This document shows, one piece after another, positions 22,446 through 60,293 of a stretch of 64,000 bases of DNA (its first letter is position 1; each line of letters begins with the position of its first letter). Under the pieces are notes generated by a model. The model did no database searches. It saw only the letters and a program-made list of their open reading frames with translations, and was not told where the DNA came from. The DNA lies in IMG/VR virus record IMGVR_UViG_3300037205_000062, positions 98,912 to 162,911 of that record; one strand, 5' to 3'. This stretch comes from a virus. The position numbers were made by a program, and so were the translations under genes.

Positions 22446-22523
22446 ATGAAGTCAAGGCAAGTTATTTTAAGAGATAAGAAAGTTTCTCCACAAAAACTAT
22501 TGTGTAGCAGATTTTATTTTTAA
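22446..22523 (+). CDS. 25-aa ORF with MKxR tag (MKSRQVILRDKKVSPQKLLCSRFYF)
   Basis: Manual translation; shares N-terminal tag. Confidence 0.4.
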   Translation: MKSRQVILRDKKVSPQKLLCSRFYF

Positions 22524-22719
22524 AAAATTAATATGAAATTACTAGGAATAATAGATGGTGTACCAATTTATGATTACAGTGATGGAGAAGATGAAGATGA
22601 TGATTTTGATTATGGCGAAATGCCAGATATTCCTAAATGGCTGGTTATTTTAATGATTACTATAGGGATTGGAATAGTTGGTTATTGTTTATATGGCTTA
22701 ATTTGTTTTATAAAATTAC

Positions 22720-23022
22720 ATGAAAGCTTATAAATTATTCAGATTAAAGAAAAATGAGGCAATTACTTCGCTTTTTATCAATAAAAGCATAGAATTACCA
22801 ATTGGACAATGGATGTTGGCCCATAATCATCCAACTAAAGGGTTTCAAGTTCGCAAGGGCTGGCATTCAATGAAAAAGAAATCTGCCCCTCATTTAAGTA
22901 AAAATGGTAGAGTATGGTGTGAAGTGGAAATTCTTGATTTTAAAGAGTTTAAGAGACCAAAAAGTCAAGGCGGTCAGTGGTATTTGTCAAATCGCCTAAA
23001 GATAAATTCAATTTTATCTTGA
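22720..23022 (+). CDS. Hypothetical phage protein
   Basis: AYKLFR, HPTKGF..R.GWH, APHL, RVWCEVE. Confidence 0.55.
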   Translation: MKAYKLFRLKKNEAITSLFINKSIELPIGQWMLAHNHPTKGFQVRKGWHSMKKKSAPHLSKNGRVWCEVEILDFKEFKRPKSQGGQWYLSNRLKINSILS

Positions 23023-23346
23023 CAAACAAATAAATAAATGGCATACTTTAAATATGAATAAAACAAATAGTAATAAACGAGTGGTTTACGGTGTTTCATA
23101 CAAGAATCATGGTCGATGGACGACTCCATCAAATATGAGTATCTTTACGAAGACACAGGTAAAGCAATTGAGTGGACAGCCCAAGAATTCTCCTATGGAG
23201 AGGCATTTGGCGGCTTTTACTGAAATTGCCGCGTGGGATAGAAAGCAACCAGCGCGCATTGTCAAGTTTGCTGCTTAATTGGGGAAAACCAGAAGAGCAT
23301 TTCCTGTATTAATTTATTGGTAATGCTTCATTGCATATTTAATAAA

Positions 23347-23547
23347 ATGAAATCAAGAAAAATTATTCCAAGAAATCGTACTGATATGGTGCCTTTATAT
23401 TATGTATGCGATATTAATAAGACGGATCGTGTGGTATATCAGGGGACTAACGAGGAATGTCGAGATTATGCTATAACAGCTAATAAAAGTTGTGGGTATA
23501 CGCTATATTGGTATAAAAATTCATATAAGGTTTTTAAAAAAAATTAA
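23347..23547 (+). CDS. Small protein with MKxR tag (MKSRKIIPR)
   Basis: Internal ATG at 23347. Confidence 0.55.
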   Translation: MKSRKIIPRNRTDMVPLYYVCDINKTDRVVYQGTNEECRDYAITANKSCGYTLYWYKNSYKVFKKN

Positions 23548-23765
23548 TGATTTATGGATGAATATGATAAACAATTTATATATGGCATTGAACAGATTTT
23601 TAATACCTTTCTTGAATTAAATAAACAATCTGATATTAAAATAGGCAGCAAAGCCAGCGTTGATTTTACTAATAAAAAAAATAAATTAACAATTGAATTA
23701 GAATTTGTTGAAAATAATTTAGAAAATAATTTCACAACGTCTATAATTAGATGTAAGTAAAGAAA

Positions 23766-23933
23766 ATGAAAGTAAATTATATAGTTTCGCAATTGATTTC
23801 CCAAAAATGGGAATGCGCTACTATGCGCCCTAGTCTCTTTACAAAAGGTAATAGAGTTGCAATTTTAGATAGTATATAAGGTGGGAAAAGTTAAAGTTTC
23901 ATAAGTAACCCACCAAAAAATGGTGGGTTTTTT
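23766..23933 (+). promoter_or_regulatory. Putative leader-peptide attenuator (37-aa ORF, antiterminator, terminator)
   Basis: ORF 23766-23879; GGTGGG 23880-23885 complementary to CCCACC of terminator 23907-23933. Confidence 0.5.
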
Positions 23934-23964
23934 GTTTTAGACTTGGTTTTAAGTAAAAAAGTAG

Positions 23965-23993
23965 TTGACAAAGAAAAAAGTAGATGTTAGATT
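23965..23993 (+). promoter_or_regulatory. Sigma-70-type promoter for tRNA array
   Basis: TTGACA-N17-TAGATT. Confidence 0.6.
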
Positions 23994-24023
23994 AGTGTTG
24001 TTGAAAGAATTTTAATGTTAGAT

Positions 24024-24154
24024 TGGTTTAGACCCGTAGATGTACCATTAAACATCATGCTGAGTACAGCGTGCAAGACATCATTGTGCGAGTCTGTGCG
24101 ACGTGTAACGTAAGTTACAAAAGTTTCAGTGGCCTTGAAGTCTATTAAAAACCA
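24024..24154 (+). ncRNA. Unknown multi-branch structured RNA
   Basis: TGGTTT/AAACCA and TAGAC/GTCTA closing stems; four hairpins including TGTAAC-GTAA-GTTACA. Confidence 0.5.
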
Positions 24155-24161
24155 CTTTTTT

Positions 24162-24235
24162 GCGGTATTAGCACAAAAGTAGTGCATTTGCTTGCCAAGC
24201 AAGATAAGTCGGAGCATTACCGACATACCGCTCCA
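24162..24235 (+). tRNA. tRNA-Gly(GCC)
   Basis: Cloverleaf, U73, CCA; T-loop AGCATTA. Confidence 0.9.
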
Positions 24236-24240
24236 TTTTC

Positions 24241-24578
24241 GTGACTGAATTAAAACGATACTGTTATCGTTAAAGTTTTAAGCAGGTGAAGAATCTGTTT
24301 AAGTTGCCATGAAATCTTAGTAAATAAGGTAGTCAGAAACTTAGATTGGCCAATCGAAGTCTATGATGTAAGCTATTACTTATAGAACATAACGGATAGC
24401 TTTTTGCTGCGACGGCGGCGAGTGACTGAAATAAAATTGAAAAGATGTAATGCTTGGGCGTAGAAAGGAATCGCCCCGATTTAATTTATCTTTAGACGAG
24501 ATAGGCAAATGTCCTATTTACGAAAAGTGCAGGGAAAGCTACCTAGAAAGCTTGACATGATGGAGAGACATCTTTTCA
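24241..24578 (+). ncRNA. One or two unknown structured RNAs
   Basis: Dense hairpins; TGAAAAGATGT/ACATCTTTTCA closes 24438-24578. Confidence 0.5.
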
Positions 24579-24579
24579 T

Positions 24580-24654
24580 TGTAAGGTATCATAACAGTAA
24601 TGAATTTGCCTGTTAAGCAAAATTATGCAGGGGCGGAACCTGCCCTTACAGCCA
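24580..24654 (+). tRNA. tRNA-Asn(GTT)
   Basis: U1-A72, G73, CCA; T-loop GGCGGAA. Confidence 0.9.
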
Positions 24655-24773
24655 AATCATAAAGATAGTTATCCCTCTTATTTATAAGATTACTCGAAAA
24701 CGAGAAACAAAATAGGTGATGCTTGAGTGGGATTAAAATGGATAATATAGATTAATTTCTGTATTGTTCACTA

Positions 24774-24863
24774 TGCTGCGTGAAGGAAAATAGCCTTGTC
24801 GCCCTCATAAGGCGAATACTGAAAATGCGTATAAGTGGATAAAGACCCGCCGTTCAGCAACCA
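24774..24863 (+). tRNA. Atypical tRNA(CAT) with long variable region and bulged acceptor
   Basis: TGCTG/CAGCA-ACCA; TCGCC-CTCATAA-GGCGA. Confidence 0.65.
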
Positions 24864-24926
24864 TTTAGATAATCCTTGTGCCTTAATAACTTATAGAAAA
24901 ATCGGCAACGGCAAGAATTAAAAAAC

Positions 24927-24998
24927 ACACCCATGTTTAAGTAAACAATTTCGTCTCCAAAACGAAAAATCAAGGAGCGTTACCCTGTGGGTGTGCCA
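24927..24998 (+). tRNA. tRNA-Trp(CCA), small D-loop
   Basis: ACACCCA/TGGGTGT-G-CCA; CTCCAAA loop. Confidence 0.85.
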
Positions 24999-25005
24999 TT
25001 AATTT

Positions 25006-25083
25006 ATATGCGCTAAGTTCGTTTGAACCTTTTAACTTAAATGTTAAATTAGCCTAGACGTTAAACTCGTCTTGCGTATTCCA
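25006..25083 (+). ncRNA. tRNA-like element, anticodon undefined (loop CTTAAATG)
   Basis: ATATGCG/TGCGTAT-T-CCA, T-arm AGACG/CGTCT, two small hairpins. Confidence 0.55.
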
Positions 25084-25087
25084 TTTT

Positions 25088-25161
25088 ACCAAACTCCGAA
25101 AAGCAGTTCTAAGAGAACCACTTAGAGGTTCATCCGATGGTTCGGGATGCGGCTGTTTGGT
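25088..25161 (+). ncRNA. Three-way junction RNA with potential kissing loops
   Basis: ACCAAAC/GTTTGGT; complementary loops GAACCA and TGGTTC. Confidence 0.55.
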
Positions 25162-25177
25162 GATTAATTTAGAAAAT

Positions 25178-25268
25178 GGTCGGTGTCCTCATTGCGAATC
25201 TGTAAAATTCGTCCTTACAACAAAAATGAGAAGTTAGGTCAATGGAGCGTTACCATCACTGACTACCA
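25178..25268 (+). tRNA. Rewired tRNA-Tyr(GTA): D-loop-like segment 3' of anticodon arm
   Basis: Acceptor, A73-CCA, T-arm and CTGTAAA loop intact; CTCATT/AATGAG encloses anticodon arm. Confidence 0.7.
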
Positions 25269-25322
25269 TGTAATTAAAAATATTATAACAATCAGTAAAA
25301 TCTTTTGCCTAATTTATCTAAT

Positions 25323-25410
25323 GGAAGTCGTAAGTATCAGAGTTGATACGACGCACTTGAAATGCGTATGTGCCTACGGGCATGGGGGGCAGAACCTCAC
25401 ACTTCCGCCA
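25323..25410 (+). tRNA. tRNA-Ser(TGA)
   Basis: GGAAG acceptor (one bulge), long variable arm, G73-CCA. Confidence 0.85.
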
Positions 25411-25413
25411 TTT

Positions 25414-25614
25414 ATGACATTAAAAGAAGAAAATCAATGGTTTACTAATCATAAAAACCTTTGTAAATATAGTAGAAAACCAGAAAAAATTGACGAATCT
25501 GTTGCATGTGATTATTGTGGCACAGAAAATACTTATCCTTGGTTAGTTTGTGAAAATCCAAATTGCTATGAAGTTGTAGCATTAGAAAAACAAAGAAGAA
25601 AAAATAATTTCTGA
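25414..25614 (+). CDS. Small zinc-finger protein
   Basis: MTLKEE...CDYC...CENPNC; the upstream part of the tracked ORF is tRNA. Confidence 0.5.
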   Translation: MTLKEENQWFTNHKNLCKYSRKPEKIDESVACDYCGTENTYPWLVCENPNCYEVVALEKQRRKNNF

Positions 25615-25720
25615 CAGGCGGTAAATAAAGGGGTAAAAACATCATAGGTTTAGGCTATTTAGATAGTCAGAATCCTTCCAATTATTTAGGAAGTCCTTGA
25701 AAAATAGCCATTAATTTATT

Positions 25721-25796
25721 GGGGGTGTGGCTCGACAAGCAAGGCACCACGTTTGCAACGTGTTTTATGCAGGAGCGATACCTGTCACCTCCACCA
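25721..25796 (+). tRNA. tRNA-Ala(TGC)
   Basis: G3:U70, ACCA. Confidence 0.9.
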
Positions 25797-25798
25797 TT

Positions 25799-25910
25799 TT
25801 TGATAAGATTTGACGCGTGGACTACTTCGTAAGATGATAAAGTCCGAAGCTGGAAACGGCGAGAAGCCTGTTAAAACCAAAAGAGAGATACTTTTGTGTC
25901 CCTTATCAAA
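25799..25910 (+). ncRNA. Unknown structured RNA
   Basis: TTTGATAAG/CTTATCAAA closing stem; GGACT/AGTCC; GCTG-GAAA-CGGC; CAAAAG/CTTTTG. Confidence 0.5.
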
Positions 25911-25918
25911 TTTTTAAT

Positions 25919-25992
25919 TCCCGTTTCGTATAGAAGCATTACCTGCGCCTTTGGAGCGTAAGAAGGTGGAGCGTTACCATCAACGGGAGCCA
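25919..25992 (+). tRNA. tRNA-Gln(TTG)
   Basis: U1-A72, CTTTGGA loop, CCA. Confidence 0.88.
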
Positions 25993-26031
25993 AAAGATTT
26001 ATTTAGCATTAAAAATTTGTCAACATAAGTT

Positions 26032-26110
26032 GGGATATAGTCCGAAGTAGTCGAGGTACTTTCCTGTCACGAAAGAAATCTAACGGATGCGAGTTCCGTA
26101 TATCCCGCCA
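26032..26110 (+). tRNA. tRNA-Asp(GTC)
   Basis: CTGTCAC loop, G73-CCA. Confidence 0.88.
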
Positions 26111-26122
26111 ATTTAAATATAT

Positions 26123-26199
26123 GGACGTATAACTCAATTAGATAGAGTATCAGCTTGCGAAGCTGAAAGTTGAAAGTGCAAATCTTTCTACGTCCACCA
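26123..26199 (+). tRNA. tRNA-Arg(GCG)
   Basis: TCAGC-TTGCGAA-GCTGA. Confidence 0.88.
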
Positions 26200-26219
26200 A
26201 GGCTTTATTGCCTTTGTTT

Positions 26220-26270
26220 TTCAATTCATAAACAAAATTGAATGGTGGAGGCGGCGGGAAACCGTCGCCC
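26220..26270 (+). ncRNA. Two-hairpin element containing 18 nt antisense to a host-type tmRNA 3' end
   Basis: 26243-26260 is the reverse complement of TTCCCGCCGCCTCCACCA; caged in GGCGGCGG-GAAA-CCGTCGCC. Confidence 0.55.
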
Positions 26271-26286
26271 TTTAAATTTATTTAAT

Positions 26287-26362
26287 GGTATATATCCTCT
26301 ATGTAGTAAGAGCGCGGCCTGTGAAGCCGCCAAAACGAATGCAAGTTTCGTTATATACCCCA
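26287..26362 (+). tRNA. tRNA-His(GTG)
   Basis: G-1:C73, CTGTGAA loop. Confidence 0.9.
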
Positions 26363-26367
26363 ATTTT

Positions 26368-26451
26368 GGCCTCGTGACCTATTTGAGAATAGAACATCAT
26401 ACGGATTTAAACCCCGTGGTTTTGAAGGTGCAAGTCCTTTCGAGGCTACCA
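26368..26451 (+). tRNA. Atypical tRNA-Leu(TAA) without long variable arm
   Basis: TTTAAAC loop on ACGG/CCGT; acceptor identical to Ile(GAT); expanded D region. Confidence 0.6.
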
Positions 26452-26627
26452 TTTTTATTGATTATTTCTAAATAACTTAGAAAATTGGATTGATAAAAAC
26501 AAAATCTATGTTAGAAATTACAAGAAGTTTTGGATTAAAAAGTTCCAATTCAATTCGTAAATGGTGTCAATTATACCAAATAGATTATAAATCTCTTTCT
26601 CCATTTTCTTATAAGAAAAATTTTAAT

Positions 26628-26711
26628 GCGCTTATGTTGTAATAGAAGCCAAGCTGCGTTTAGACCGCAGTGGAGAAATCCGTGGGGGTGCAAGTCCCTC
26701 TAGGCGCACCA
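26628..26711 (+). tRNA. tRNA-Leu(TAG)
   Basis: Class II cloverleaf. Confidence 0.9.
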
Positions 26712-26713
26712 TT

Positions 26714-26827
26714 AGATTAGATCATATTAATGGTATTCGTAACGACAATAGACTAGAAAATCTTAGATTTTTATGTCCCAACTGCCATAGTCAAACACAA
26801 ACCTTCGGTTCTAAAAAAAGAATTTAA
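26714..26827 (+). pseudogene. HNH homing endonuclease remnant
   Basis: RLDHINGIRNDNRLENLRFLCPNCHSQTQTF, no start. Confidence 0.8.
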
Positions 26828-26828
26828 T

Positions 26829-26904
26829 GGCCCGTAGTAACAACAGCATGTTTGCCTCCTTTACACGGAGAATCGAGCAAGGGCAGCACTTGCACGGGCT
26901 ACCA
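26829..26904 (+). tRNA. tRNA-Val(TAC)
   Basis: TTTACAC loop, ACCA. Confidence 0.85.
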
Positions 26905-26949
26905 TTTTAATCTTGACATTACAATAAGAATCCACTAATATAGTTATAT

Positions 26950-27026
26950 CGGAATGTAGCGTAGGCTGGTAACGCGTCTGCTTTGGGAGCAGAAGATCGT
27001 GAGTCCGAATCTCACCATTCCGACCA
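26950..27026 (+). tRNA. tRNA-Pro(TGG)
   Basis: C1-G72, GG D-loop; TTGACA promoter just upstream. Confidence 0.92.
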
Positions 27027-27281
27027 TGTATGTTTGAAAAGTATATTACTCATATTTTTGAGAATAATGAGGAAGCAGAAAATGAATCAGCAAAAATTAT
27101 TCATTCAACAGCTAGTAGTATTAGAGGATGGGAACAGTATCAATCTTTTTTAAAAGATAAAAAAGAAAACGATACATTAGTTTGGTTTGATTATAGTTAT
27201 CCAATGGCTTCCAGAAAAGGATTGGGTATTCTAAGAAACGGTAAAATAATTTCTCATTGTATTTTTATAATGAGTTGATAC

Positions 27282-27370
27282 GGCTTCAAGATGTAAAGTG
27301 CATGGGGGGACTTATAATCCCTATAATCGGCAGATTGCCGTTCTGGACGGTGCAATTCCGTATGAAGCTA
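27282..27370 (+). tRNA. tRNA-Ile(TAT) with long variable arm, CCA not encoded
   Basis: GGGGA-CTTATAA-TCCCT; GGCA-GAT-TGCC arm. Confidence 0.75.
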
Positions 27371-27384
27371 CTAATGGTTTTAAT

Positions 27385-27460
27385 GGCCTCGTAACTCAAT
27401 TAGCAGAGTGTTCACCTGATTAGTGAAATGTTGGGGGTGCAAGTCCCTTCGAGGCTACCA
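27385..27460 (+). tRNA. tRNA-Ile(GAT), U37
   Basis: TTCAC-CTGATTA-GTGAA. Confidence 0.88.
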
Positions 27461-27475
27461 TTAAATATTTTTAAT

Positions 27476-27613
27476 ATGGACGAAACGATTACTATTTCCA
27501 AAGAAGAATATGAGGAACTTTTAGAAGATGCTAAATTCATGCGTGCATTAGAAGCCGCAGGAGTAGATAATTGGGAAGGATACGAATACGCCCAAGATTT
27601 ATTGGGAAAATAA
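27476..27613 (+). CDS. Small phage protein with GVDNWEGY motif
   Basis: MDETITISKEEY...ALEAAGVDNWEGY. Confidence 0.65.
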   Translation: MDETITISKEEYEELLEDAKFMRALEAAGVDNWEGYEYAQDLLGK

Positions 27614-27619
27614 TTTAAT

Positions 27620-27695
27620 GTTGCCGAATACAAAGAGACGAGTAAGTAGTCCTTCAAACTACTCCTAGCAGGTGCGAGTCCTGTCGGCAATACCA
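27620..27695 (+). tRNA. tRNA-Glu(TTC), C33
   Basis: GTAGT-CCTTCAA-ACTAC. Confidence 0.8.
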
Positions 27696-27700
27696 TTTAT

Positions 27701-27775
27701 GCATATGTAACTCAGAGGCAGAGTATTGCACTTCCAATGCAAAGGTCGAGATTTCAAAATTCTCCATATGCTCCA
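27701..27775 (+). tRNA. tRNA-Gly(TCC), canonical elbow
   Basis: GG D-loop, TTC T-loop. Confidence 0.92.
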
Positions 27776-27876
27776 ATTTCCAAGACGGAATCGTTTCTGG
27801 CGTTGCCAGACTAGAAATAGCTAAGTTACAATGTTTCGGTTTTAAAGACAAAATAACTACACCTGTCCTTGGAAAT
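27776..27876 (+). ncRNA. Unknown structured RNA filling the Gly-Thr spacer
   Basis: ATTTCCAAG/CTTGGAAAT; TCTGGC/GCCAGA; AGTTA/TAACT. Confidence 0.5.
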
Positions 27877-27880
27877 ATTT

Positions 27881-27955
27881 GCTTCGTAAGCATAAAAAGT
27901 GATGCACTTGATTTGTATCCAAGATAAGCCAGAGCGTTACTGGCACGAAGCTCCA
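27881..27955 (+). tRNA. tRNA-Thr(TGT)
   Basis: Cloverleaf, CCA. Confidence 0.88.
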
Positions 27956-28032
27956 ATTTTTTTAGTTTTAAAAAAACAATTAATTTTCAAATAATACTTG
28001 ACACAATTTTAAATATTTGTTAATCTTTAAAT

Positions 28033-28470
28033 ATGACTAAAGTATCTATTGAAGCTGTTTTGGAGGGTTTGAAGCGGGCGGGAGTAGCAGCCAAAGAAGT
28101 TGGAGTAACATTGAATTATTTGGAAAAGGTTGCTCAAGAAGAACAAGCTCAAAAGGACGCTGAAAAGCTTCCGACTCAAAAAAATGAATATGGTGTTATT
28201 TTATTTGATGTAGATGGAGTAATATCTGGAAAAGATTTTTCAGCAGTTGTTTACCAAATTCCGCAGGGTGATGACCATGGTTTAGTTTTGGGCAAAATTT
28301 CGGAATCTATACGAGAACAAATGGCAGCAGCAAAACGTAAAAAATTTACAATTGATACACTTGGCGCGGCAATTCAAAGCTTAAAGCGTAAGTTTATTAA
28401 AGATAAAAATGTTAATTTGAAGACTAAAAATCCCGTGAGAGTATTGATAAGTAATAATAAATTAGTTTAA
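28033..28470 (+). CDS. Hypothetical protein
   Basis: ORF behind TTGACA promoter. Confidence 0.55.
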   Translation: MTKVSIEAVLEGLKRAGVAAKEVGVTLNYLEKVAQEEQAQKDAEKLPTQKNEYGVILFDVDGVISGKDFSAVVYQIPQGDDHGLVLGKISESIREQMAAAKRKKFTIDTLGAAIQSLKRKFIKDKNVNLKTKNPVRVLISNNKLV

Positions 28471-28505
28471 TATGCAAACATGAAGATAGAAGAATAATAA
28501 TTTAA

Positions 28506-28582
28506 GCGTTCGTAGCTAAAATAGCCAAAGCATTCGGCTTTTAACCGAAATAGTGTGGGCGCAAGTCCCACCGAGCGCACCA
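28506..28582 (+). tRNA. tRNA-Lys(TTT)
   Basis: CTTTTAA loop. Confidence 0.9.
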
Positions 28583-28604
28583 TTTTGTTAAAAGTTTTTA
28601 ATTT

Positions 28605-28678
28605 GCGCTACAAGCATTAAAATGATGCAAAAGGTTCTTACCCTTTAGAACACGGCGTATTACCGTGGTGGCGCACCA
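28605..28678 (+). tRNA. tRNA-Lys(CTT)
   Basis: TTCTTAC loop; T-loop CGTATTA. Confidence 0.85.
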
Positions 28679-28851
28679 ATCTAATTTAGTAACCTCACCA
28701 GCTATCGCGCTTGGTCAAGAAAAAATAATACTTGTGGTGTCGCAAGGAGGCGAAGTAATTTTATGGAAATAAAAACAATAGACAATTTAATTATTGATAC
28801 TCATAAAGAAAACTATATTAACGCAGAAATGATTGAGTTAATGGAAAAATC

Positions 28852-29151
28852 ATGAAAATTAAAACTATCAATGGAGAGACTGTAGATACTGTTAAATTGG
28901 CAGATTTGAAATCTCAATTTATTGAAACAATGGAATCAAATGCCATAGTAGATTTTTCAAAGAAATTTGGTGCGTCATTTTTTTTATTTGGAAGATGTCA
29001 AGATGAAGGTTGGGTAAAATTTAATATACCTAATGAAAAAGAATTCAATTTTTTATTAATGGCGATAAATGAATACGTTGATACACAATCTGGCGGTAAA
29101 TATCATTTGGAAATGGTTCCGAATAATATTGAGCCAACGGAAGAAATATGA
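28852..29151 (+). CDS. Hypothetical protein, paralog of 20235-20561
   Basis: INGETVDTVKLAD...SGGK. Confidence 0.55.
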   Translation: MKIKTINGETVDTVKLADLKSQFIETMESNAIVDFSKKFGASFFLFGRCQDEGWVKFNIPNEKEFNFLLMAINEYVDTQSGGKYHLEMVPNNIEPTEEI

Positions 29152-29379
29152 AATTTTATGTTAAAGCAATTGGTCCGAATAGATATTCTGGTGGAAGTTG
29201 TAATTGGCTATTAATAAGAGAAATAAAAAGAGAAAATGATAGTTTAGTTATAAAAATTAAAACTAAATGGGGTATTAAATATATTTCTTGTAGTTTAGAT
29301 ATGGTAACTCCAAATTTAATTTTTAAGAATGAACTAAATGGATTTGAAAATTTTAAAAATATTTGCGATAAATTTAAAT

Positions 29380-29455
29380 GACTACTAAACTAATCAAGTG
29401 AAAGTGCAATTCTGAAAAAATTGAAAGTCGTGAGCGTTACACGAAGTAGTCACCA
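29380..29455 (+). tRNA. tRNA-Phe(GAA)
   Basis: CAATT-CTGAAAA-AATTG. Confidence 0.85.
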
Positions 29456-29459
29456 GATT

Positions 29460-29552
29460 GGAAGATACACGAATAGTTAGGTTTTCGTAGAAATTTGCTA
29501 AATTTCCGTTCCCGAAAGGGGACTGTCGGGGCGGCACCGACATCTTCCGCCA
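29460..29552 (+). tRNA. tRNA-Ser(GCT)
   Basis: Long variable arm, G73-CCA. Confidence 0.9.
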
Positions 29553-29639
29553 ATAAACAAAAATGAAATATGATTATCAAAATCAAATTTAATTTAAAAG
29601 ATAAAGTGTTAATCAAAGAACGTAAGTGTAATAATCTAC

Positions 29640-30371: not shown

Positions 30372-30419
30372 AATTATAAAAATATCTATTTTTTTGTGTA
30401 ATTACTTTTATAATAATTT

Positions 30420-30994: not shown

Positions 30995-31009
30995 ACATTT
31001 TATAAAATT

Positions 31010-31669: not shown

Positions 31670-31673
31670 GTAT

Positions 31674-31768: not shown

Positions 31769-31772
31769 TAAT

Positions 31773-31845: not shown

Positions 31846-31847
31846 CT

Positions 31848-41100: not shown

Positions 41101-41149
41101 TATAAAAACAAGTGCTTGACAATAATTAAAATTGTGATAATTTCAAATT

Positions 41150-44703: not shown

Positions 44704-44940
44704 ATGAAAGCAAGAAAAATAATAAAAAGAAGCGTCTTTAAGTATTTTCATAAAGATTCTAATGTTGTATATAGAACAAAGAATAATGTTTCATTATGTG
44801 GATATATGTATTTAGAAGAACATAATCATTGGTATCCAGCAGTATTTGCCAACAGGAAATCGGAAGAAGTACTTATAAGTGATGGATGGAAACTTATTCC
44901 TTTTGACGCAATTGATAAATTAAGACAAAAATATTTATAA
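44704..44940 (+). CDS. Small protein with MKxR tag (MKARKIIKR)
   Basis: Internal ATG 44704. Confidence 0.55.
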   Translation: MKARKIIKRSVFKYFHKDSNVVYRTKNNVSLCGYMYLEEHNHWYPAVFANRKSEEVLISDGWKLIPFDAIDKLRQKYL

Positions 44941-44947
44941 CATAATT

Positions 44948-45469
44948 ATGAAAACTAGAATAATTAAAAAACGAAGTGACTATTTGTATTTTTACCATCC
45001 AAATGATCGTAGAGTCTGTAGAGTTAAGAATAATATTTTTATGTATTCGACTGATATGGAAAAATGGATTATAGACAAGAGTATAATTTCTATTTCTCGG
45101 TTAACAACCATATGTAATTGGAAAGAATGTTCTTATGAATTTGCAAAAGATTTATGCGATAAAAAAAATTCAGGCAATTCAATTGCTATTGATTCAATTC
45201 CTGAAGATTTAATTGTTGTTGATCCAATCAAAGCTTACCCTTTAAACTCGAATTATAATTGGTCGGACGCAGTAAATAAATCACCTTGTAGAGATTTATC
45301 TTCGCGACTAAATGAAATTAAGAAAGGATCACCTCAAATACTGCAAGACTATCTTATGGCCGTAGTTGAACCTAATCCAACAAATATAACATGTGCCGAC
45401 AATCCTTGTAATTCTAAAAATCACCATGACGAAATAGTAAAATGGATAGAACCAGATTATAATACTTAA
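44948..45469 (+). CDS. Protein with MKxR tag (MKTRIIKKR)
   Basis: ORF track; N-terminal half resembles upstream neighbour. Confidence 0.55.
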   Translation: MKTRIIKKRSDYLYFYHPNDRRVCRVKNNIFMYSTDMEKWIIDKSIISISRLTTICNWKECSYEFAKDLCDKKNSGNSIAIDSIPEDLIVVDPIKAYPLNSNYNWSDAVNKSPCRDLSSRLNEIKKGSPQILQDYLMAVVEPNPTNITCADNPCNSKNHHDEIVKWIEPDYNT

Positions 45470-46099: not shown

Positions 46100-46436
46100 A
46101 ACAATAATTTAAAATAAAATAATTTTCTTTAAAAAAGAACTTGACAATATATTAATATTGGTTTAGTTTTCATTATATGAAATTGTTGCTTGAATTTACC
46201 GAAGGCGAATTAGAAAATTTTCGTACATTTTCTCAATCCGTTGAAAAACAACTTGGCAACGTTTATGTTGGAACAAATTCACTTTGTGTTTATTACGATT
46301 ATCCAAAAGAATTAGCTGGACTTTTGCGACCAACGGCAGGGAATCCTTATGTGAGTGACGCAGAACTTGCTGAATTAAAGCATAAACTTAAATCAGGAAA
46401 ATTAGTTTTTGAAATATTTAGTAGTAAGCCGCAAAA

Positions 46437-46700
46437 ATGAAACATAGACCTTTAATTTTACGTTCTGATGCTTCTTGTGAATATTTATGGAGTGGTACCG
46501 TTTATGAACGGTCGTATTATGAATGGCCGTACGTGAAAATTTTTAAAAAGAATAAGAATGGTGTTTTTGTCAAGCAATTAAGTGGTAATGAATGGATTTC
46601 TATACATGATGTTACTTGGAATTATTACCAATTTGTAAAAGAATGGAAAAAAATTGGAAAAAAAGAACTACAGTTTTATTATCCAGATATAGTTTTATAA
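46437..46700 (+). CDS. Small protein with MKxR-like tag (MKHRPLILR)
   Basis: ORF track. Confidence 0.5.
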   Translation: MKHRPLILRSDASCEYLWSGTVYERSYYEWPYVKIFKKNKNGVFVKQLSGNEWISIHDVTWNYYQFVKEWKKIGKKELQFYYPDIVL

Positions 46701-51299: not shown

Positions 51300-51374
51300 A
51301 TTGAGAATTACACTTAATTTTTTATTTGACTTTAATTAAATTATATGTTAGTATTCTTATATGGATTTATCTTT

Positions 51375-52451: not shown

Positions 52452-52907
52452 GCTTGACAATCAATAAAACTTTGTTTATGGTTGGATATGGATTCGCATT
52501 TAACACAAAATACATTGGATATTATCGCTTTTATGAACGAAGCAATTGAAAACGGGCAACGCTTTAAACTTGGCGACGAACCAAATGAAATTGTTTTGTT
52601 TGATGGAGTAAGGGATGATATTAGGATGACTAATACTCATGGTGGCGGCACTTGGCACATTAATGATTATCAATGATTTATGAGAAGTTCAGACGACCCA
52701 ACTTTAATTGGAGCATTATTTCAAGATGATTTGCCCGATGGTTGCTGCGCTATAAAATGCGAAAAATGCACTTGTATTTTTCCTGACAAAAGCGAAATAG
52801 GCGAACCCTGTATTTGTCCTACTTGTAAAACGGAATTATTTTATCGTAGTTGGTGTAGTTGGTAATTTTCTCTTGACAATTTCTTAAAATTATTCAATAA
52901 TCAAATT

Positions 52908-53300
52908 ATGAGTCATCCAGTTAAATTTAGAGCGTGGTTTAATGGCAAAATGCATTATCCAGTATTTTTTGGTTTTGAAAACGGCATTCTTCTATGGGAG
53001 TGGAAGGATGGAGATTTTAACAAAAATTCTCGCGAATTTCAAATGTTTACAGGTTTGTGCGACGTTAACGATAATGAAATTTATGAGGGGGATATTTTAA
53101 CAGGCATTAAACTTCCTAACGTTGGTAAGGGTACTTTTTTTGCTCAAGTTCAATATGTACCTTGTTATTATAGATTTGTAGCTACACTTCCGAATGGGGA
53201 ACAGTTGACGCCAATTTTGAATGGTGAAGGTGTTTATACGCATCACCTTAAAATTGTTGGAAATGCTTTTGCTAATCCAGAACTTTTAAAATTTTTATGA
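52908..53300 (+). CDS. YopX-family protein
   Basis: KFRAW, FTGL.D.N..EIYEGDI, IVGN...NPELL. Confidence 0.8.
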   Translation: MSHPVKFRAWFNGKMHYPVFFGFENGILLWEWKDGDFNKNSREFQMFTGLCDVNDNEIYEGDILTGIKLPNVGKGTFFAQVQYVPCYYRFVATLPNGEQLTPILNGEGVYTHHLKIVGNAFANPELLKFL

Positions 53301-53604
53301 AAACTTTTACATCGAAAGACGGAAAATATTCAGCAAAATATGATGATTCTTTTAAGGTTGGTGATTTAATTACTGCTTATCAAAAGGGTTATCATGAGTT
53401 TGTAAAATATCAAGAGAGAGGTGAAACTGCTGCTCCCCTTATATATTATAGACGTGTTTTTAAGTTTAATGGACGTTCAGCAAAGTCTAAAAAAGTATTA
53501 TGCTGCGATGCCGTGTATTGTCATAAAGCTTCCGAACATATTAAAAATTTAATTAAAAATTTACACGAACAGATAAAACTTTTGGAACAAATTCCAGCTT
53601 AATC

Positions 53605-53630
53605 ATTAAGCTTGACAATTAAGCTTGACA
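53605..53630 (+). repeat. 13-bp tandem duplication containing TTGACA
   Basis: ATTAAGCTTGACA x2. Confidence 0.85.
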
Positions 53631-53660
53631 ATTATTTAAGGTTAACATATTTTTGATACT

Positions 53661-54629
53661 ATGGACTTTGACCATTTTACATATATTCCCAATGGACGTT
53701 GGCAAATGGGATGCGAAGTTGAATGTTGTATTAAGCGCGCCCAAAACAGAAGCTTTGAGAAACAACTTAAATCTTTACACAAAGGAATTGAATTTGAATA
53801 TGATGGTTCATTAAGGCCAATTGGTTGGTCACACGATAATCATAATAGTGAACTGTATTATAATAGAGGGGACATTAGAAACGACGCTCCATTTGATCAA
53901 GGACACGAATTACTGACGCCTGTTTTACCTGTAAAAGATGCTAGTTTACTTTTAATTGAAATTTTTCGTTTAATTGAAAAAGATGGTTATACAAATAAAA
54001 GTTGTGGGCTACACGTTAATTTTTCTCCAATTAATAAATCTGATTATGGAAAGATCAATCCTTTCTATTTAGTTTCGCAACCTATTTGGAATGAAATTCG
54101 GGAAGTGTTTGGGCGTATGAAAAACAAATATTGTAAAAATATTTTTGTGCGCGAAGATATTTGTAAAAATCCCACTTCTATTTTGGAGCATGTTAAGCAT
54201 GGGAAATTTTGGGATAAGTATGATGGTATTGAAAGGACGACTGATTATAAGCATTTGAATGCGATTTCCCTATGGCGTTACATGGTAAAAATGCAGCAAT
54301 TTAATCGTTTTAATAAACAACGTTTTGTTGATTATAAGTGGCATTATTCAGTTGTTAACTTTGATCATTATACTCCCTTACCCGCGCATGATTCAAGAAT
54401 TGAAGTTAGGGGATTTGGTAATAAAAATTATCATTTAAGATTAGAGGAAATTATTTCATACATAGAAAAAATTATTGAATTGTTTGAAAATTCTATGAAT
54501 TTTACTTTAAAGGATATTGGCAAAGAGGAAATAATAGCACCAAAAAAGGAAATTAAACCAAAAAAAGCGTTACAATCTCCTTATTCATCTATTCTTGATG
54601 AAGAATATGATTATACTGAAGCCTTTTAA
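53661..54629 (+). CDS. Putative amidoligase (COOH-NH2 ligase)
   Basis: GCEVE, DGSL, ELLTPVL, TNKSCGLHVN, RIEVR. Confidence 0.8.
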   Translation: MDFDHFTYIPNGRWQMGCEVECCIKRAQNRSFEKQLKSLHKGIEFEYDGSLRPIGWSHDNHNSELYYNRGDIRNDAPFDQGHELLTPVLPVKDASLLLIEIFRLIEKDGYTNKSCGLHVNFSPINKSDYGKINPFYLVSQPIWNEIREVFGRMKNKYCKNIFVREDICKNPTSILEHVKHGKFWDKYDGIERTTDYKHLNAISLWRYMVKMQQFNRFNKQRFVDYKWHYSVVNFDHYTPLPAHDSRIEVRGFGNKNYHLRLEEIISYIEKIIELFENSMNFTLKDIGKEEIIAPKKEIKPKKALQSPYSSILDEEYDYTEAF

Positions 54630-54631
54630 TT

Positions 54632-55102
54632 ATGACAGCTACACCTGAACAATTAGAACAACATGGCAAAGCGGTTAAGAAGCATGTTTTTTATGTGAGA
54701 AAAAATGGCCGTAAATTAATTAAGGAATTTCAGAAACGCCTTAAGGAACATGATTTATCTAAATTAGAAGAGCCAGAATTGAGTGTTTACGCCGAACATA
54801 ATGATAAACTTAAACTAACAGAGTATGGAACGAAAGAATATGAACAACTTTTGGAATTAGTAAAACCAGCTATTACCGCACATTATAGTCAAAATAGGCA
54901 TCATCCAGAACATTTTCCAGATGGAATAAATGAAATGGATTTAGTTGATTTGTTGGAATTACTGTCGGACTGGACAGCAAGCGTAAAGAAAAATAAGAAC
55001 GGCAATATTCATCGTTCTATTGAATTAAATACTAAAAGATTTAATATTAGTCCACAGTTAGCACAAATTCTAACAAATACTGTTCACAGATATTTAAGTT
55101 AA
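54632..55102 (+). CDS. DUF5662-like HD-type protein
   Basis: HDLSK..EPE, HY..NRHHPEHF..GI..M.LVD..E...DW. Confidence 0.75.
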   Translation: MTATPEQLEQHGKAVKKHVFYVRKNGRKLIKEFQKRLKEHDLSKLEEPELSVYAEHNDKLKLTEYGTKEYEQLLELVKPAITAHYSQNRHHPEHFPDGINEMDLVDLLELLSDWTASVKKNKNGNIHRSIELNTKRFNISPQLAQILTNTVHRYLS

Positions 55103-56551
55103 TATTATGAAAATTACTTTAGAGCATTTGTTAAGCCAGCAATATTTAAGGGAAGATTATAGCTCTTATTATCCAGAAAAAAATACTGATGAAGATTTTC
55201 GGGTAGAAATTACTCGATTGTTTAATGATTGGGACAAACATCCTTGGGACTGTAAGTGTTTAATTTGTGTTTAATGCTTGGCAAACGATAAAAAACTTTT
55301 TATTATTTTAATATGAAATTCAAAGTATCAATTATTGTTGGAGTTGTTGAAGCTAACTCCCAAGAAGAAGCTAACAAAAAGGCTATTCAACATTTAGAAA
55401 ATTTTGCTGGTTCTAATGATGGTAGCGAAATTTTGGCGAATGCTGAACCTATTCTTACAGAAACTACTACTAATGCTTCATGGAGCAAATGGGGAGGATT
55501 TAAAAATTAACATGAAAAACGTCCAACGAGAATATATTTGCGAAAATCCAGAATGCGGGAACGGAATGAGAGTTTGTGTATTTCATTCTAATATGAAATC
55601 TCGCCAGCAACAATGTGCTTGGTGTGGTCAAAAAATAAAAGATACAGGTAGATATTGGCTTGTTTGGCGCAAAAATGTTATTGGATATAATGGAGACGGT
55701 ACAAAATTTGAGATTTTTAAAAGAAAAGATTTAAAATGAAAAAGAAAAAAGATTATCCACGTTTGTCTAATGGCGAAATTGATTATTCAAAAGTTGATGC
55801 GGGTAACTGCTTTCGAGATTTTCCCAAAATCTATTCGACAGTTGAAGATATTGAAGAATTCATTTTACATAAAAATTGTTATTATCCAGTATTAATGAAT
55901 CTTCTTAAACTCCGAAAAGAGAATAAGTTAAACTTAACCCCTACGGAAGACGCATTTTATTTTGAAAATCTTTTTGATTATATTTATGATGTTTATCGCA
56001 TCCCTACCGAAGAAACTTATAAGAAAGTAGCTGAATGGTTGCAACATATTGAGTATTCTTTGGTTTTTAGCGGTTTATCTTATGTAAAGTGTAATTCATA
56101 CGAATCTGTTAGAAGCAATTGGGAAGCAAAAGTAAGGTTAGCTGAATTTGCAAAAGAATCTGGTATTAAAAATACTAAATTCGATTTAAAAGAAATTAAT
56201 TGCTTTATTGATATTGGGGAAAACAATGATTTTTATAATAGAAAAGACCCGAAGTTAATTGAATCTTTTTGGATTAAATGTGATAAATGCGTTATTCAAC
56301 CCATTATTAAGGGCGATGAAGCTTATGCTCGCGTCCACGTTTATCCTGAAAGGGTTTATATTTGCGGTTGCGATGATTCATCCTATACACTGTTTACTAA
56401 AACCAAAAAAGAAGCAAAAGAATTTGCGCTATATTTAAAATGTGCCGCGCCAGTTTGGAATTTTCGTTATACTAATATAATTCATCACAAACTTGAATTT
56501 ACTAATTAAATTACTTCACTTTTCCCTAAACTTGTCTTTTTTTTTATAAAA

Positions 56552-56761
56552 ATGAAATCGCGCCCCATTCATCCTAGACAACACAAAGAGCTTGCCATCG
56601 GTGACATTGTATATTTTAGAACAAGTTGTATGAATTTTAATCAAGGTGATTCGGCTAAAGTGACTAAGTTTTTAATAAAAAATGGTAAACCTGCTTATGT
56701 CACTGTAGAAGGAAATTCAATGTTGATCCCCTTTTACTATTTTTGTAAAAAGGAAATATGA
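56552..56761 (+). CDS. Small SH3/KOW-like protein with MKxR tag (MKSRPIHPR)
   Basis: IGDIVY pattern. Confidence 0.55.
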   Translation: MKSRPIHPRQHKELAIGDIVYFRTSCMNFNQGDSAKVTKFLIKNGKPAYVTVEGNSMLIPFYYFCKKEI

Positions 56762-56970
56762 AAGCTCGGAAAATTATACCAAGAGAAGAAAAAGAGTTTC
56801 GTGTGGGAGATACGGTTTATCTTCTAAATGATCATGTTGCTCACTTCAGAGGAGAAGCTTTTAAAATTAAAAAAATAATTATTTCGTGGGGCGCGAAGTA
56901 TTTTGTTTTTGATGGTCAAAAAGATGACGAATTTTTTATGGAACATAATTTTTCTAAAAAGAAACCTTGA
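56758..56970 (+). CDS. Small SH3/KOW-like protein with MKxR tag (MKARKIIPR)
   Basis: FRVGDTVY pattern. Confidence 0.55.
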   Translation: MKARKIIPREEKEFRVGDTVYLLNDHVAHFRGEAFKIKKIIISWGAKYFVFDGQKDDEFFMEHNFSKKKP

Positions 56971-57002
56971 CTTTTATATAAGGTTATCTTATTATTAGTT
57001 TA

Positions 57003-57533
57003 ATGAAAATATTTATTAAGGATGTAAAAGGTCTTTCTATTCCAAAACAAGCCACTGAAAATGATGCGGCTTATGATATAATTGCTACCACTCCCCCTAT
57101 TATATTTGGAACTAAAATTCAACGTTCTATGGACTATATGGATATGTGGAGCAAAATTACTTTTATTGAATATGGCACAAATGTTTTTATTGCGCCAGAA
57201 GATAAGAATTTTCATACTTTACTTCATCCTCGTTCTAGCATTTCTAAAACGAATTTAATTTTGGCAAATTCCGTGGGATTAGTGGATAACGGCTATCGTG
57301 GACAACTTTATTGCCGTTTTAAATATATTAGTCAACCCGAAGATTTAATAGTTTTAAATGAAGCGGGTGGCACACGAGTTTATACTATTGTTAATTTAGA
57401 TAATATATATAAAGAGGGCGACAAAATTATTCAGATTAAAGCGAGCCAAAATATTCCGATTGATTTTGAGTTAGTATATGATTTAAATAAAACTCAAAGG
57501 GGCGAAGGTGGATTTGGGTCTAGTGGCATTTGA
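57003..57533 (+). CDS. dut: dUTPase
   Basis: AAYDI, PRSS, NSVGLVDNGYRG, RGEGGFGSSG. Confidence 0.92.
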   Translation: MKIFIKDVKGLSIPKQATENDAAYDIIATTPPIIFGTKIQRSMDYMDMWSKITFIEYGTNVFIAPEDKNFHTLLHPRSSISKTNLILANSVGLVDNGYRGQLYCRFKYISQPEDLIVLNEAGGTRVYTIVNLDNIYKEGDKIIQIKASQNIPIDFELVYDLNKTQRGEGGFGSSGI

Positions 57534-58281
57534 TATTTCTTGACAAAGTATAAAAATTGTTTTATAGTTTTTATATGAAAACGAAACTGTATTTAATAGC
57601 ACATCAAACTGATTTGTTTGGTACATGGGAAACTCCCGAAGAAGCGGTTAAACAACATTTTTCTTATGAAATTAAACACAATGGTTTGAATGTTGACGAA
57701 CAAGTTAAAAAGATGCTAAATCCTCGTTCTGATTATCCAATTTTTATTAAATTGGAAGCTGGCAAGAAATTTAGCATGGATAGATAATTTTGTCGTTCTG
57801 GAAAATAACACTTGACATTAACAAAAAATTTTGATATTGTTGAAATATGAAAATTAACATTATTTACCCTAAAGGTTGGTGGAGACTATCAAAAGGTCAA
57901 ATGATGAAAAAGGGAGATAAATTTTGGGATGGGGATTCTGGCGAGGGTTATTGGTTTTTGTATAAGGGCAAGCCTTGTCCAGTTGAGGATACACTTGTTG
58001 TAAGAAAGTATTTAAGCAAGAAGTCTGCTTTAAAACTTAAACAAGAAGAAACCAAAAGGGTTATTAGTGAAAATGTTCCTGTTGTAAATGTGAGTAAAGC
58101 TTTATCGGGAGAATTGAAACCAAATGCTTTTGTTTATCAAGACGAATTTGGAAGAATAGGTATTCTGTTTGGTGTGAGTGGTTGGTTGGGTGCAAAGATT
58201 GAGAAATTTGAGGGTGACCAAGCGCCATTTTGCGGTTAATTTACACCCCACTATAAATCAAAAAAACTAAAACGGGGTGTC

Positions 58282-58306
58282 GGCGGGTCGCAAGACTTGC
58301 CTTTTT
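58282..58306 (+). terminator. Intrinsic terminator
   Basis: GGCGGGTC-GCAA-GACTTGCC plus T5. Confidence 0.75.
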
Positions 58307-58666
58307 ATTTTATTGACAAATCGACAAATTGATGTATATTTGAAGTATGGGCAAAAATCGCAACAAGAACAAAAATCTCAATTTCTCAAGAGGCGAGAAA
58401 ACTATGTTGGCATTGGTCGCTAACTTAAATTCGCCAAATAGAAAATATCCAACAGAATTGGAAACACAGAATGCCCTGATGAATATTCAGGGGCTTCTTA
58501 ATGTTTTGAATGGAAAAGCCTATCGTGTTGCGCGGTGTATTGTAGATAAATCTTATCAAGAAGATAGTGATAAAATTAAAAATTACGCCCAAGGTTTAGT
58601 CGAGTGGGCAGAGACGATATGATAAGATAATTTGAATATAGATCACTTTTTTTAGGTCTATTATAT

Positions 58667-59173
58667 GTGTACATTAATAGATTTGATAAAAATGGTAAAT
58701 GCGCCCAAGACGGTAATAAAGTAGAAGATTTATTTTATAATCTTTTAATAAAAAGGGGACAGGTCAGAAAAGCTACCATTGGAGAACAACGTAAACATAT
58801 TGATTTTATTCTTACTAAAGAAGGGAAAGAAATTACTTACGATGTTAAGGCGCTTAAGCGGATTAATAGAAACGATTCTGATACTGATGATAGTTTAATT
58901 TGGATAGAATGGTTAAGCGTCGGAGGGAATGATGGTTGGATTAGCGGCAAGTGTGACTTCATTGTTTTTGAGCAAAAAAATTCTTTTATTATTATACAAA
59001 GAGAGAAACTAAAGGAACTTTGTATGAAACTTTGTGATTTAACTTCAATTGTAAAATCTTCCAGCAACGCTCTTTATTGTTCGTATCAAAGATATGGGCG
59101 AAAAGATTTACTTTCTCTTATTAAGACTTCTGACATTATACCAGTGGCTGATGAAATTGTTCAGAAAATTTAA
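58667..59173 (+). CDS. PD-(D/E)XK nuclease-like protein
   Basis: E..F, HIDF, YDVK, WIE...V.G..GW; TTGAATA..GTCTA promoter at 58632. Confidence 0.6.
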   Translation: MYINRFDKNGKCAQDGNKVEDLFYNLLIKRGQVRKATIGEQRKHIDFILTKEGKEITYDVKALKRINRNDSDTDDSLIWIEWLSVGGNDGWISGKCDFIVFEQKNSFIIIQREKLKELCMKLCDLTSIVKSSSNALYCSYQRYGRKDLLSLIKTSDIIPVADEIVQKI

Positions 59174-59945
59174 TTTTATATTTTACATAAACGTCTCATT
59201 TTTGGACATTTTTCTTGACATATATAGAAAATTACTGTAAATTAAGATTATGGACACGATAAAAATTATTCTAAATGAAAAAGGTCAATTAGACACAATT
59301 CTTAGCGATGGGGAACCCAATATACAAGTTCTACAGCGCGGGAAAAATGACAGTAAAATTGACGAATTTGAAAGCATACTCGACGTAGTAGATTATTAAT
59401 TCTCATGGATATTGATACACTTCAATTGCCAATATGGGTTGTGCAAGGCGTTAATTTTATTGCTAAAGTTCAAACGGATGAATATAACGCGCAATTCGCG
59501 CCCTTACACCAAGCCGAAGAAGCCGCTACTCGAATCATAGAGCAATTCAAAGGGCATGATAGAAAAATTCCTTGTGAAATTTCAGGTGAACAAAAAATTC
59601 CAGAATTAGGCGGCGTACTTCTTGTGTATTTATTAAATTCAGACCCGCAAGATGGTTTTCTTTTAATGGTACATGAATTACTTGCTAATGCTGGTTTTTA
59701 TAAAGACTCTTTTGCAGTTCAAAAATTAACAGAAGAAACTCTAAAAGAAAATAATCAAACAGAAGATGATATTTTAAAAATTAAAAAAACCAAAAAGGAA
59801 AAAAAGAAACCAGTCAAAAAACCACGTAAACGTGGACCTAACAAGAAAAAGAAAAAATAGCACTTGACATATAATAAAAAGTATTTTAATGTCATATTAT
59901 GACACGTATATAACGCTCTAACAAATTTGGAGCGTTTTTATTTTT

Positions 59946-60293
59946 ATGAAATCACGAAAAATTATACTAAGAAATAGTTGTTTCAGCTATAAATTTTTTA
60001 AATTGGGGCATTTATATGAATTAGTTAAAATTGGCAAAAACCCACTTAAATCTTCTAATTATTGGTTTGGTGCAAAAGTTTGGCTACGTGAAAATGATGA
60101 AAAAATAGAAAAAGTTGGTCTTTTGCGTAAGGGCCAAATCGCATGTATTAAAGATGACGTTTTATTTCCTCATATTGCCTTTGATGATTCTTTTAAATTT
60201 TTAGAAGATAATAAACCTCAAACATTAATTGCAAAAGCATGCAGAGGGAAAGCGGTAAATTATTCTAAAACATTTGGAACTGTTACGACATAA
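59946..60293 (+). CDS. Protein with MKxR tag (MKSRKIILR)
   Basis: ORF track. Confidence 0.55.
   Translation: MKSRKIILRNSCFSYKFFKLGHLYELVKIGKNPLKSSNYWFGAKVWLRENDEKIEKVGLLRKGQIACIKDDVLFPHIAFDDSFKFLEDNKPQTLIAKACRGKAVNYSKTFGTVTT

Follow-up and report, generated by a model that had tools for sequence, protein, structure and literature searches.

In T-even bacteriophages, the internal proteins are small and diverse, and an N-terminal peptide of about 10 amino acids is the only part conserved among them (PMC3012670, PMC9026906). In phage T4, the last residues of this capsid-targeting sequence (CTS) form the gp21 site L/I-x-E, and cleavage after the Glu removes the peptide (PMC9026906). A related arrangement is described here for a stretch of 64,000 nucleotides (in the following called the window), which forms the final 64 kb of the 162,911-bp IMG/VR virus contig IMGVR_UViG_3300037205_000062 (positions 98,912 to 162,911). 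In the window, eight open reading frames (ORFs) start with a nine-residue basic N-terminal peptide of the form M-K-x-R-x-(I/L/V)-x-x-R, referred to as the tag.

Like the CTS of the T4 proteins IPI, IPII and IPIII, the tag comprises about ten residues at the extreme N-terminus, begins with Met-Lys and is the only conserved part of small, fast-evolving phage proteins. It differs in being strongly basic, in its invariant Arg9, in the variable positions 10–12 and in having no conserved Glu; furthermore, there are 21 carriers in this phage compared with three or four in T4, and they are located in an early arm with sigma70 promoters. The analogy to the T4 CTS drawn in the initial annotation therefore holds for a short shared N-terminal peptide on diverse small proteins, but does not extend to the L/I-x-E site or the residue at position 9, and the tagged genes are located in the early arm and not in the head module. 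By analogy, the tag can be called CTS-like in its logic, with the T4 CTS as the nearest described system, and it is not classified as a CTS.

Conserved N-terminal peptides are also known from multi-precursor systems of ribosomally synthesized and post-translationally modified peptides (RiPPs), like the prochlorosins and the MSDIN peptides, in which a conserved leader precedes a hypervariable core. A further type are the N-terminal signals of AAA+ proteases (ClpX N-motifs, lambda O), which are short unstructured basic and hydrophobic peptides read by a hub. With the RiPP systems the locus shares many dispersed genes with a common N-terminal peptide and an unrelated remainder. Here, however, the bodies following the tag comprise 63–173 amino acids and include at least one modelled SH3/KOW-like barrel, the leader would be just nine residues long, and neither an adjacent maturase nor a known leader-recognition domain is present. 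A classification as RiPP precursors, which are defined by a short core and an adjacent maturase, was therefore rejected. The tag resembles the AAA+ signals in being short, unstructured, N-terminal and both basic and hydrophobic, but its sequence differs from the published N-motifs. From jumbo phages, lineage-specific expansions of small domains are known; Bacillus phage G, for example, has about 35 copies of a Zn-ribbon (PMC7824862). Such expansions likewise consist of dozens of small paralogous genes in one phage lineage, partly in tandem, but conserve the whole domain, whereas in the present case conservation is limited to nine N-terminal residues and no similarity of the bodies was detected across subfamilies.

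The interpretation favoured here, with a probability of about 0.55, is that the tag is a modular short linear motif, an extended N-terminal docking tag read by one common partner; we infer both the binding by the motif and the partner itself.

Identification of the tag and its excess over chance

A six-frame scan of the window for MK.R....R resulted in eight matches, all of which are located on the plus strand at or near the start of an ORF and have I, L or V at position 6. The eight N-termini listed in the initial annotation were all recovered with the same positions, peptides and Arg codons. The same phage is also present as a 211,993-bp metagenome scaffold in ENA, from which the genome was rebuilt via exact-protein matches as a 211,938-bp circular-equivalent sequence; in the overlap of contig and scaffold, 6 of 14,055 bases differ. 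Within 45 kb beyond the contig end, 13 further tagged ORFs were found on the plus strand, whereas the final 11 kb of the rebuilt genome contain none. In total, 21 carriers are located on one strand of an 80-kb accessory arm with about 160 genes, of which about 13% are tagged. Three of the carriers are just 24–34 codons long. A ninth match in the contig is located on the minus strand and belongs to a YopX protein, which is treated below.

The chance expectation was calculated from residue frequencies and 30 second-order Markov shuffles. For the 163-kb contig it amounts to 0.5–0.8 matches, or 0.13–0.22 if I, L or V is demanded at position 6. For the window, about 0.3 matches are expected and eight were observed (Poisson P ~2e-9), and for the whole genome 21 plus-strand ORF starts compare with about one match expected in six frames of 212 kb (Poisson P ~1e-20). 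In an unbiased enumeration of four-position N-terminal patterns, MK.R.I..R ranked top with 10 called genes, compared with at most four genes in 100 column shuffles, while the same enumeration in a relative of 170 kb (G002) reached only the null value of three. An apparent motif M.I...G..G in this relative was discarded as an internal fibre repeat. The scan against shuffled controls that had been suggested together with the initial annotation thus places the motif frequency far above the compositional expectation, and an origin by chance or composition is ruled out by the shuffles, the pattern enumeration and the Poisson probabilities.

The Met of the tag is called as start codon by NCBI, ENA, Logan and mostly also JGI. 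Alternative in-frame ATG codons are located 8 codons upstream of the ORF starting at position 23347 and 21 codons upstream of that at 44704 (ORFs of the window are designated by their first position in the following). For these two ORFs as well, three or four independent pipelines agree on the Met of the tag.

Conservation at the peptide level

Across the 21 tags, M1, K2, R4 and R9 do not vary, and position 6 is occupied by I, L or V without exception. R4 is encoded by AGA (8), CGC (4), CGA (4), CGG (2), CGT (2) and AGG (1), that is, by all six Arg codons, and four Arg codons are in use at R9. For K2, the ratio of AAA to AAG is 18:3, the same as in the genome usage (81:19). No common sequence could be found in the 45 nucleotides upstream of the tagged ORFs. 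Since the synonymous codons are scattered and the flank is not conserved, selection acts on the peptide, as had been proposed from the Arg codons of the window, and a DNA repeat or an RNA operator could be ruled out.

For the determination of the boundary, one member of each of 12 independent lineages was placed in an ungapped register and BLOSUM column scores were compared with shuffles. The score is 5.0 at positions 1, 2, 4 and 9 and 3.2 at position 6, and from column 10 on each column is at shuffle level. The conserved element is thus a block of nine residues with a sharp end, beyond which similarity is faint at most. Pro is found at position 5 or 8 in eight of the 21 tags, which together with the alternation of K2, R4 and I6 suggests an extended rather than a helical peptide. 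As the residues following Arg9 are polar or aromatic and form no hydrophobic stretch, a Sec or Tat signal peptide was rejected.

Proteins behind the tag

A BLAST comparison of the bodies alone revealed four small paralog groups and about 10 singletons, with E-values of 3e-4 to 2e-5 within the groups. Group A comprises a protein of 78 amino acids (MKARKIIKR..., 44704..44940), which is encoded directly after the NAMPT gene, its tandem paralog of 173 amino acids (MKTRIIKKR..., 44948..45469) and one member beyond the window. Group B consists of two proteins of 69 (MKSRPIHPR..., 56552..56761) and 70 amino acids (MKARKIIPR..., 56758..56970), and groups C and D are both located beyond the window. These and all other tagged ORFs of the window are encoded on the plus strand. 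Comparisons with hhalign between the groups, and of the groups with the alignment of the phage's own YopX proteins, gave probabilities below 6%. An iterated hmmsearch with the tag-less bodies against the database of 703 ORFs recruited no sequence from outside the own group, even at E ≤ 1. No homology of bodies across groups was found in this way, which leaves at least 12 lineages, although the sensitivity of the method is low for families so small. Pfam and PHROGs searches with 17 tagged proteins gave nothing significant. The earlier description of the bodies as largely unrelated applies to most of them, which lack cross-similarity, but not to the tandem pairs 44704/44948 and 56552/56758, which are paralogs. 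Judging from their sequences, some of the body groups are probably old paralogs.

Furthermore, the body of the 66-amino-acid protein MKSRKIIPR... (23347..23547) resembles, with its residues 17–54, residues 203–240 of an untagged 309-amino-acid protein with an internal duplication (L119:13739-14668; 45% identity, E 1e-10), so that this domain occurs both with and without the tag. One body encoded beyond the window is Cys-rich. For subfamily B, AlphaFold2 (AF2) predicted a small beta-barrel (pLDDT, the predicted local distance difference test, 63), located at residues ~12–68 of the 56758 protein, while the tag residues 1–11 have a pLDDT below 50. According to Foldseek and VIA-align, the predicted barrel is similar to SH3-like barrels of the KOW, Tudor, PsaE and NdhS type (Z 5–6.6), and the structural alignments mostly start at residues 10–14. 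For this subfamily, the model weakly suggests a flexible tag outside the barrel domain.

The two remaining full-length carriers of the window are singletons. The protein of 87 amino acids starting with MKHRPLILR (46437..46700) has a start codon that overlaps the upstream gene by 4 nucleotides, and the protein of 115 amino acids starting with MKSRKIILR (59946..60293) has an ESM Atlas model that is uninformative (pLDDT 0.36). Upstream of the latter, at 59864-59945, a promoter-like site is followed by a leaderless mini-ORF of four codons (MTRI-stop) and a hairpin with a U-run (dG -13.2 kcal/mol, z -4.2), which represents either an attenuator-like element or the upstream operon's terminator.

The mini-ORF MKSRQVILR... 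(22446..22523) comprises 25 codons with a TAA stop and represents a truncated member or a tag-only peptide. In the region 22446-22733, an ORF of 66 amino acids with a hydrophobic C-terminal segment begins in the same frame three codons after this TAA; the arrangement may be a decayed fusion or a leader-peptide layout. An alternative genetic code or read-through was rejected for the mini-ORF on account of its plain TAA stop and the fit of code 11 to the genome.

Among the described families, YopX (PF09643) comes close to the tag, sharing the spacing R-x-I-x-x-R in its N-terminal strand M..REIKFRxW. The phage encodes at least six YopX paralogs (window 52908-53300; L119:15836-16231; L121:11154-11552; L123:12310-12750; own contig, minus strand, 88919 and 71306), of which most start with M(K)xREIKFRxW. 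The minus-strand protein mentioned above has the start MKNREIKFR and matches PF09643 with an E-value of 3.7e-18. In YopX, however, the strand runs on into a conserved W and a conserved domain. None of the 17 tagged proteins matches PF09643 at E ≤ 0.1 and the hhalign probability against the own YopX proteins is below 2%, for which reason a membership in this family was rejected. The tag may nevertheless have originated from the 5′ end of a YopX gene.

Expression and genomic context of the tagged genes

The accessory arm contains about 72 sites of the form cTTGACA-N15-19-TAnnnT. In the window, 34 of these sites were found on the plus strand between 16462 and 62033 (e.g., 20201-20229, 41116-41143, 46141-46169 and 59215-59243), and in 25 of the 34 an ATG follows 3–10 nucleotides past the -10 box. 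Among the untagged arm genes, the -10 box ends 5–10 nucleotides (mode 7) before the ATG in 44 of 140 cases. This proximity of -10 box and ATG points to leaderless early transcripts and implies a sigma70-type polymerase. A Shine-Dalgarno signal could not be detected in the whole genome (6% vs. 7.7% background), and about 70% of the genome's starts have a T at -1.

Tagged genes are rarely promoter-proximal (1 of 21, compared with the 44 of 140 untagged genes; p 0.009) and are more often located at most 7 nucleotides from the upstream gene (12 of 21 vs. 36 of 140; p 0.009). Part of this position bias is accounted for by tandem duplication. Among the proteins of the structural module, none carries the tag. 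From sequence, the tagged genes are assigned to early operons driven by sigma70-type promoters and not to the head module.

Several amidoligase and amidotransferase genes are present in the phage. Enzymes encoded among the tagged genes of the arm are three COOH-NH2 ligases (PF14395), an Amidoligase_2-like protein, a GATase_4 and two Peptidase_C26 proteins; amidoligase, COOH-NH2 ligase, GATase_4 and Peptidase_C26 genes are located at 53661-54629, 60647-61552 and 62088-62900 in the window and at L119:17495-18154, L119:19407-20309 and L121:10390-11142. A gene for an SprT-like zincin peptidase (L119:11569-12299) is followed after 2 nucleotides by a tagged gene (MKARKIIKR...), and a RuvB-like AAA+ gene is located just upstream of the peptidase gene. 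A pairing of MoxR and zincin peptidase was considered and rejected, as the ATPase is RuvB-like and the SprT-like peptidase gene adjoins only 1 of the 21 tagged genes.

The phage is uncultured and has a genome of about 212 kb with a G + C content of about 30%, for which the standard genetic code (code 11) fits. It encodes a divergent terminase, a DNA polymerase, a DnaB helicase, a class II ribonucleotide reductase, a sigma factor and a thymidylate synthase as well as an NAD salvage set consisting of NAMPT, an NMNAT-like protein and two Nudix proteins. In the window, 13 tRNAs were detected with ARAGORN. The large terminase (TerL), encoded outside the window on the same contig (L030:11364-14504), comprises 1046 amino acids compared with about 606 in 80 relatives, which points to a large insertion, possibly an intein.

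Distribution outside this phage

Word-indexed searches with three members against 5.8 billion proteins returned only the members themselves or a 95% variant from another run. A profile of the tag and the following 21 residues, searched against 1.84 billion representative proteins, matched nothing but 12 members from this phage itself and two repeat artefacts. The strict DNA pattern of the tag was found in 21 contigs of IMG/VR with one match each in a chance-like context. The 80 relatives identified via the terminase all have a TerL identity of at most 55%, and in the two long ones among them (144 and 170 kb, 55% TerL identity) neither the tag nor the PF14395 ligase was found. By these searches, the motif is restricted to this lineage.

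Discussion

The sharp boundary, the selection at the peptide level, the unrelated bodies, one of which is reused without a tag, and the predicted disorder fit a modular label better than a strand that is intrinsic to a fold. As a docking tag, the nonapeptide would be kept by selection on about 21 small early accessory proteins regardless of the domain that follows. The extended basic-hydrophobic-basic peptide at the extreme N-terminus would bind with the side chains of K2, R4 and I6 and with R9 to one acidic or hydrophobic groove by strand addition. In this way, an exchangeable set of effector modules would be directed to one receptor. For the receptor, a cytoplasmic hub of the host or the phage (a nucleic-acid machine or an AAA+ unfoldase or adaptor) can be proposed only tentatively; in the case of an unfoldase, the tag would serve as a shared timing degron. 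It is unlikely that a prohead or scaffold acts as receptor in a virion loading analogous to the T4 CTS, and an enzyme that modifies the invariant Lys2 is a still less likely partner. Given the location in early operons and the lack of a Glu-type cleavage site, docking to a cytoplasmic hub or a protease adaptor is more likely than behaviour strictly like that of the T4 CTS, and an enzyme acting on Lys2 comes into consideration because of the ligase-rich arm. That the tag is a true address code, by which one receptor (the prohead core or a host or phage hub) gathers a renewable early effector panel of 21 members, is conceivable, with the odds somewhat against it; a new domain would then join the panel by gaining nine codons.

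Several observations weigh against the docking tag. Only one usable body model is available, which has a pLDDT of 63, as the AF2 model of subfamily C reaches a pLDDT of 44. Columns 10–30 of the alignment are, when summed, slightly above the shuffles (p 0.009). In roughly half of the members, the tag leads directly into an aromatic strand, and further on there is a W-x-[IL]-[IL]-P-like motif, which links subfamilies A and C in a manual alignment; judging by these features, one old family may account for part of the set. The tag motif was found in no other phage examined, so that a general sorting code has no comparative support. A virion-loading form of the tag is in addition opposed by the missing Glu-type protease site, the missing tag in the structural module and the sigma70-type early operons.

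The main rival explanation, which is doubtful but has to be taken seriously, is a single hyper-diverged paralog family that arose by lineage-specific tandem expansion, in which the nine residues are the functional core of the protein and not transferable, for example as a nucleic-acid-binding arm or as the initial strand of a small beta fold common to the family. The four groups of tandem or nearby paralogs, the location of all members on one strand of one 80-kb arm and the similar starts and spacing of the phage's YopX paralogs are in line with such a family, as are the many small, beta-rich and aromatic bodies with their loose aromatic strand, the motif joining A and C and the weak residual similarity in columns 10–30; large expansions of this kind are known from jumbo phages such as Bacillus phage G. 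It is opposed by the profile methods, which gave no cross-recruitment of bodies even at the relaxed threshold, and by the variety of the bodies, which include a Cys-rich one, an SH3/KOW-like barrel and the domain also found in the untagged 309-amino-acid protein. Furthermore, the step-like loss of conservation at residue 9 would be unusual for a fold-intrinsic strand, the model predicts a disordered tag that is not part of the barrel, and the tagged proteins lack a YopX signal in Pfam. A strict CTS of the T4 type, with loading into the prohead core, removal of the tag by the prohead protease and injection of the panel with the DNA, is improbable. The sole conservation of about ten N-terminal residues on small, diverse and mostly basic proteins corresponds to the T-even internal proteins, the body sizes are similar to those of IPI–IPIII, and the median isoelectric point (pI) of the bodies is 8.9. 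Body pI and charge do not differ, however, between tagged and untagged proteins of the arm (p 0.35 for the pI), for which reason the charge was discarded as a clue to packaging. No L/I-x-E or conserved Glu is located at or after the tag, whose position 9 is occupied by Arg and is followed by a variable, polar residue; no protein of the structural module carries the tag, and the operons are driven by TTGACA-type promoters typical of early transcription. A prohead protease of the S77/S78 type (PF03420/PF04586) was not matched either, but the head-module ORFs have no Pfam hits and are too divergent for this absence to mean anything.

A recognition leader for an enzyme, in which the tag is the handle or Lys2 the acceptor of a phage modification system as in RiPP leaders or Pup-type lysine ligation, is considered very improbable. 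Candidate enzymes would be the carboxylate-amine ligases and the glutamine-amidotransferase-like peptidases interspersed with the tagged genes in the same arm; Lys2 is invariant, one tagged gene follows the SprT-like peptidase gene after 2 nucleotides, and a conserved leader with a variable rest formally matches the layout of multi-precursor RiPPs. Unlike this phage, the two relatives without a tag lack PF14395, a co-occurrence seen in just three genomes. None of the tagged genes has an enzyme gene as a consistent neighbour, only the one mentioned adjoins the peptidase, the bodies are probably folded and too long for short cores, and no leader-binding domain of the RiPP recognition element type or another known type was found. 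Least probable is a feature linked to translation, by which the first nine codons or residues would aid internal cistrons during initiation or early elongation, the genome having no Shine-Dalgarno motifs. The leaderless promoter-proximal genes, the scarcity of tagged genes at promoters and their tight upstream coupling would agree with this, and a T at -1 is found in 8 of 21 tagged compared with 65 of 96 untagged internal genes (p 0.014). The synonymous scatter at every conserved residue and the enrichment of the G + C-rich CGN codons at R4 show, however, that no RNA element is conserved, the 96 other internal genes are initiated without a tag, and tandem duplication alone explains much of the position bias.

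If a single partner reads the tag, it would provide an experimental handle on about 20 orphan proteins together, and modular address tags on accessory proteins of phages would then not be peculiar to the internal proteins of T-even phages. In uncultured phages with proteins that lack homologs, the tag could also help to locate fast-evolving effector panels by simple computational means. If the carriers are instead one diverged family, they would represent a lineage-specific expansion of 21 members that makes up about 13% of the genes in its stretch of the early arm.

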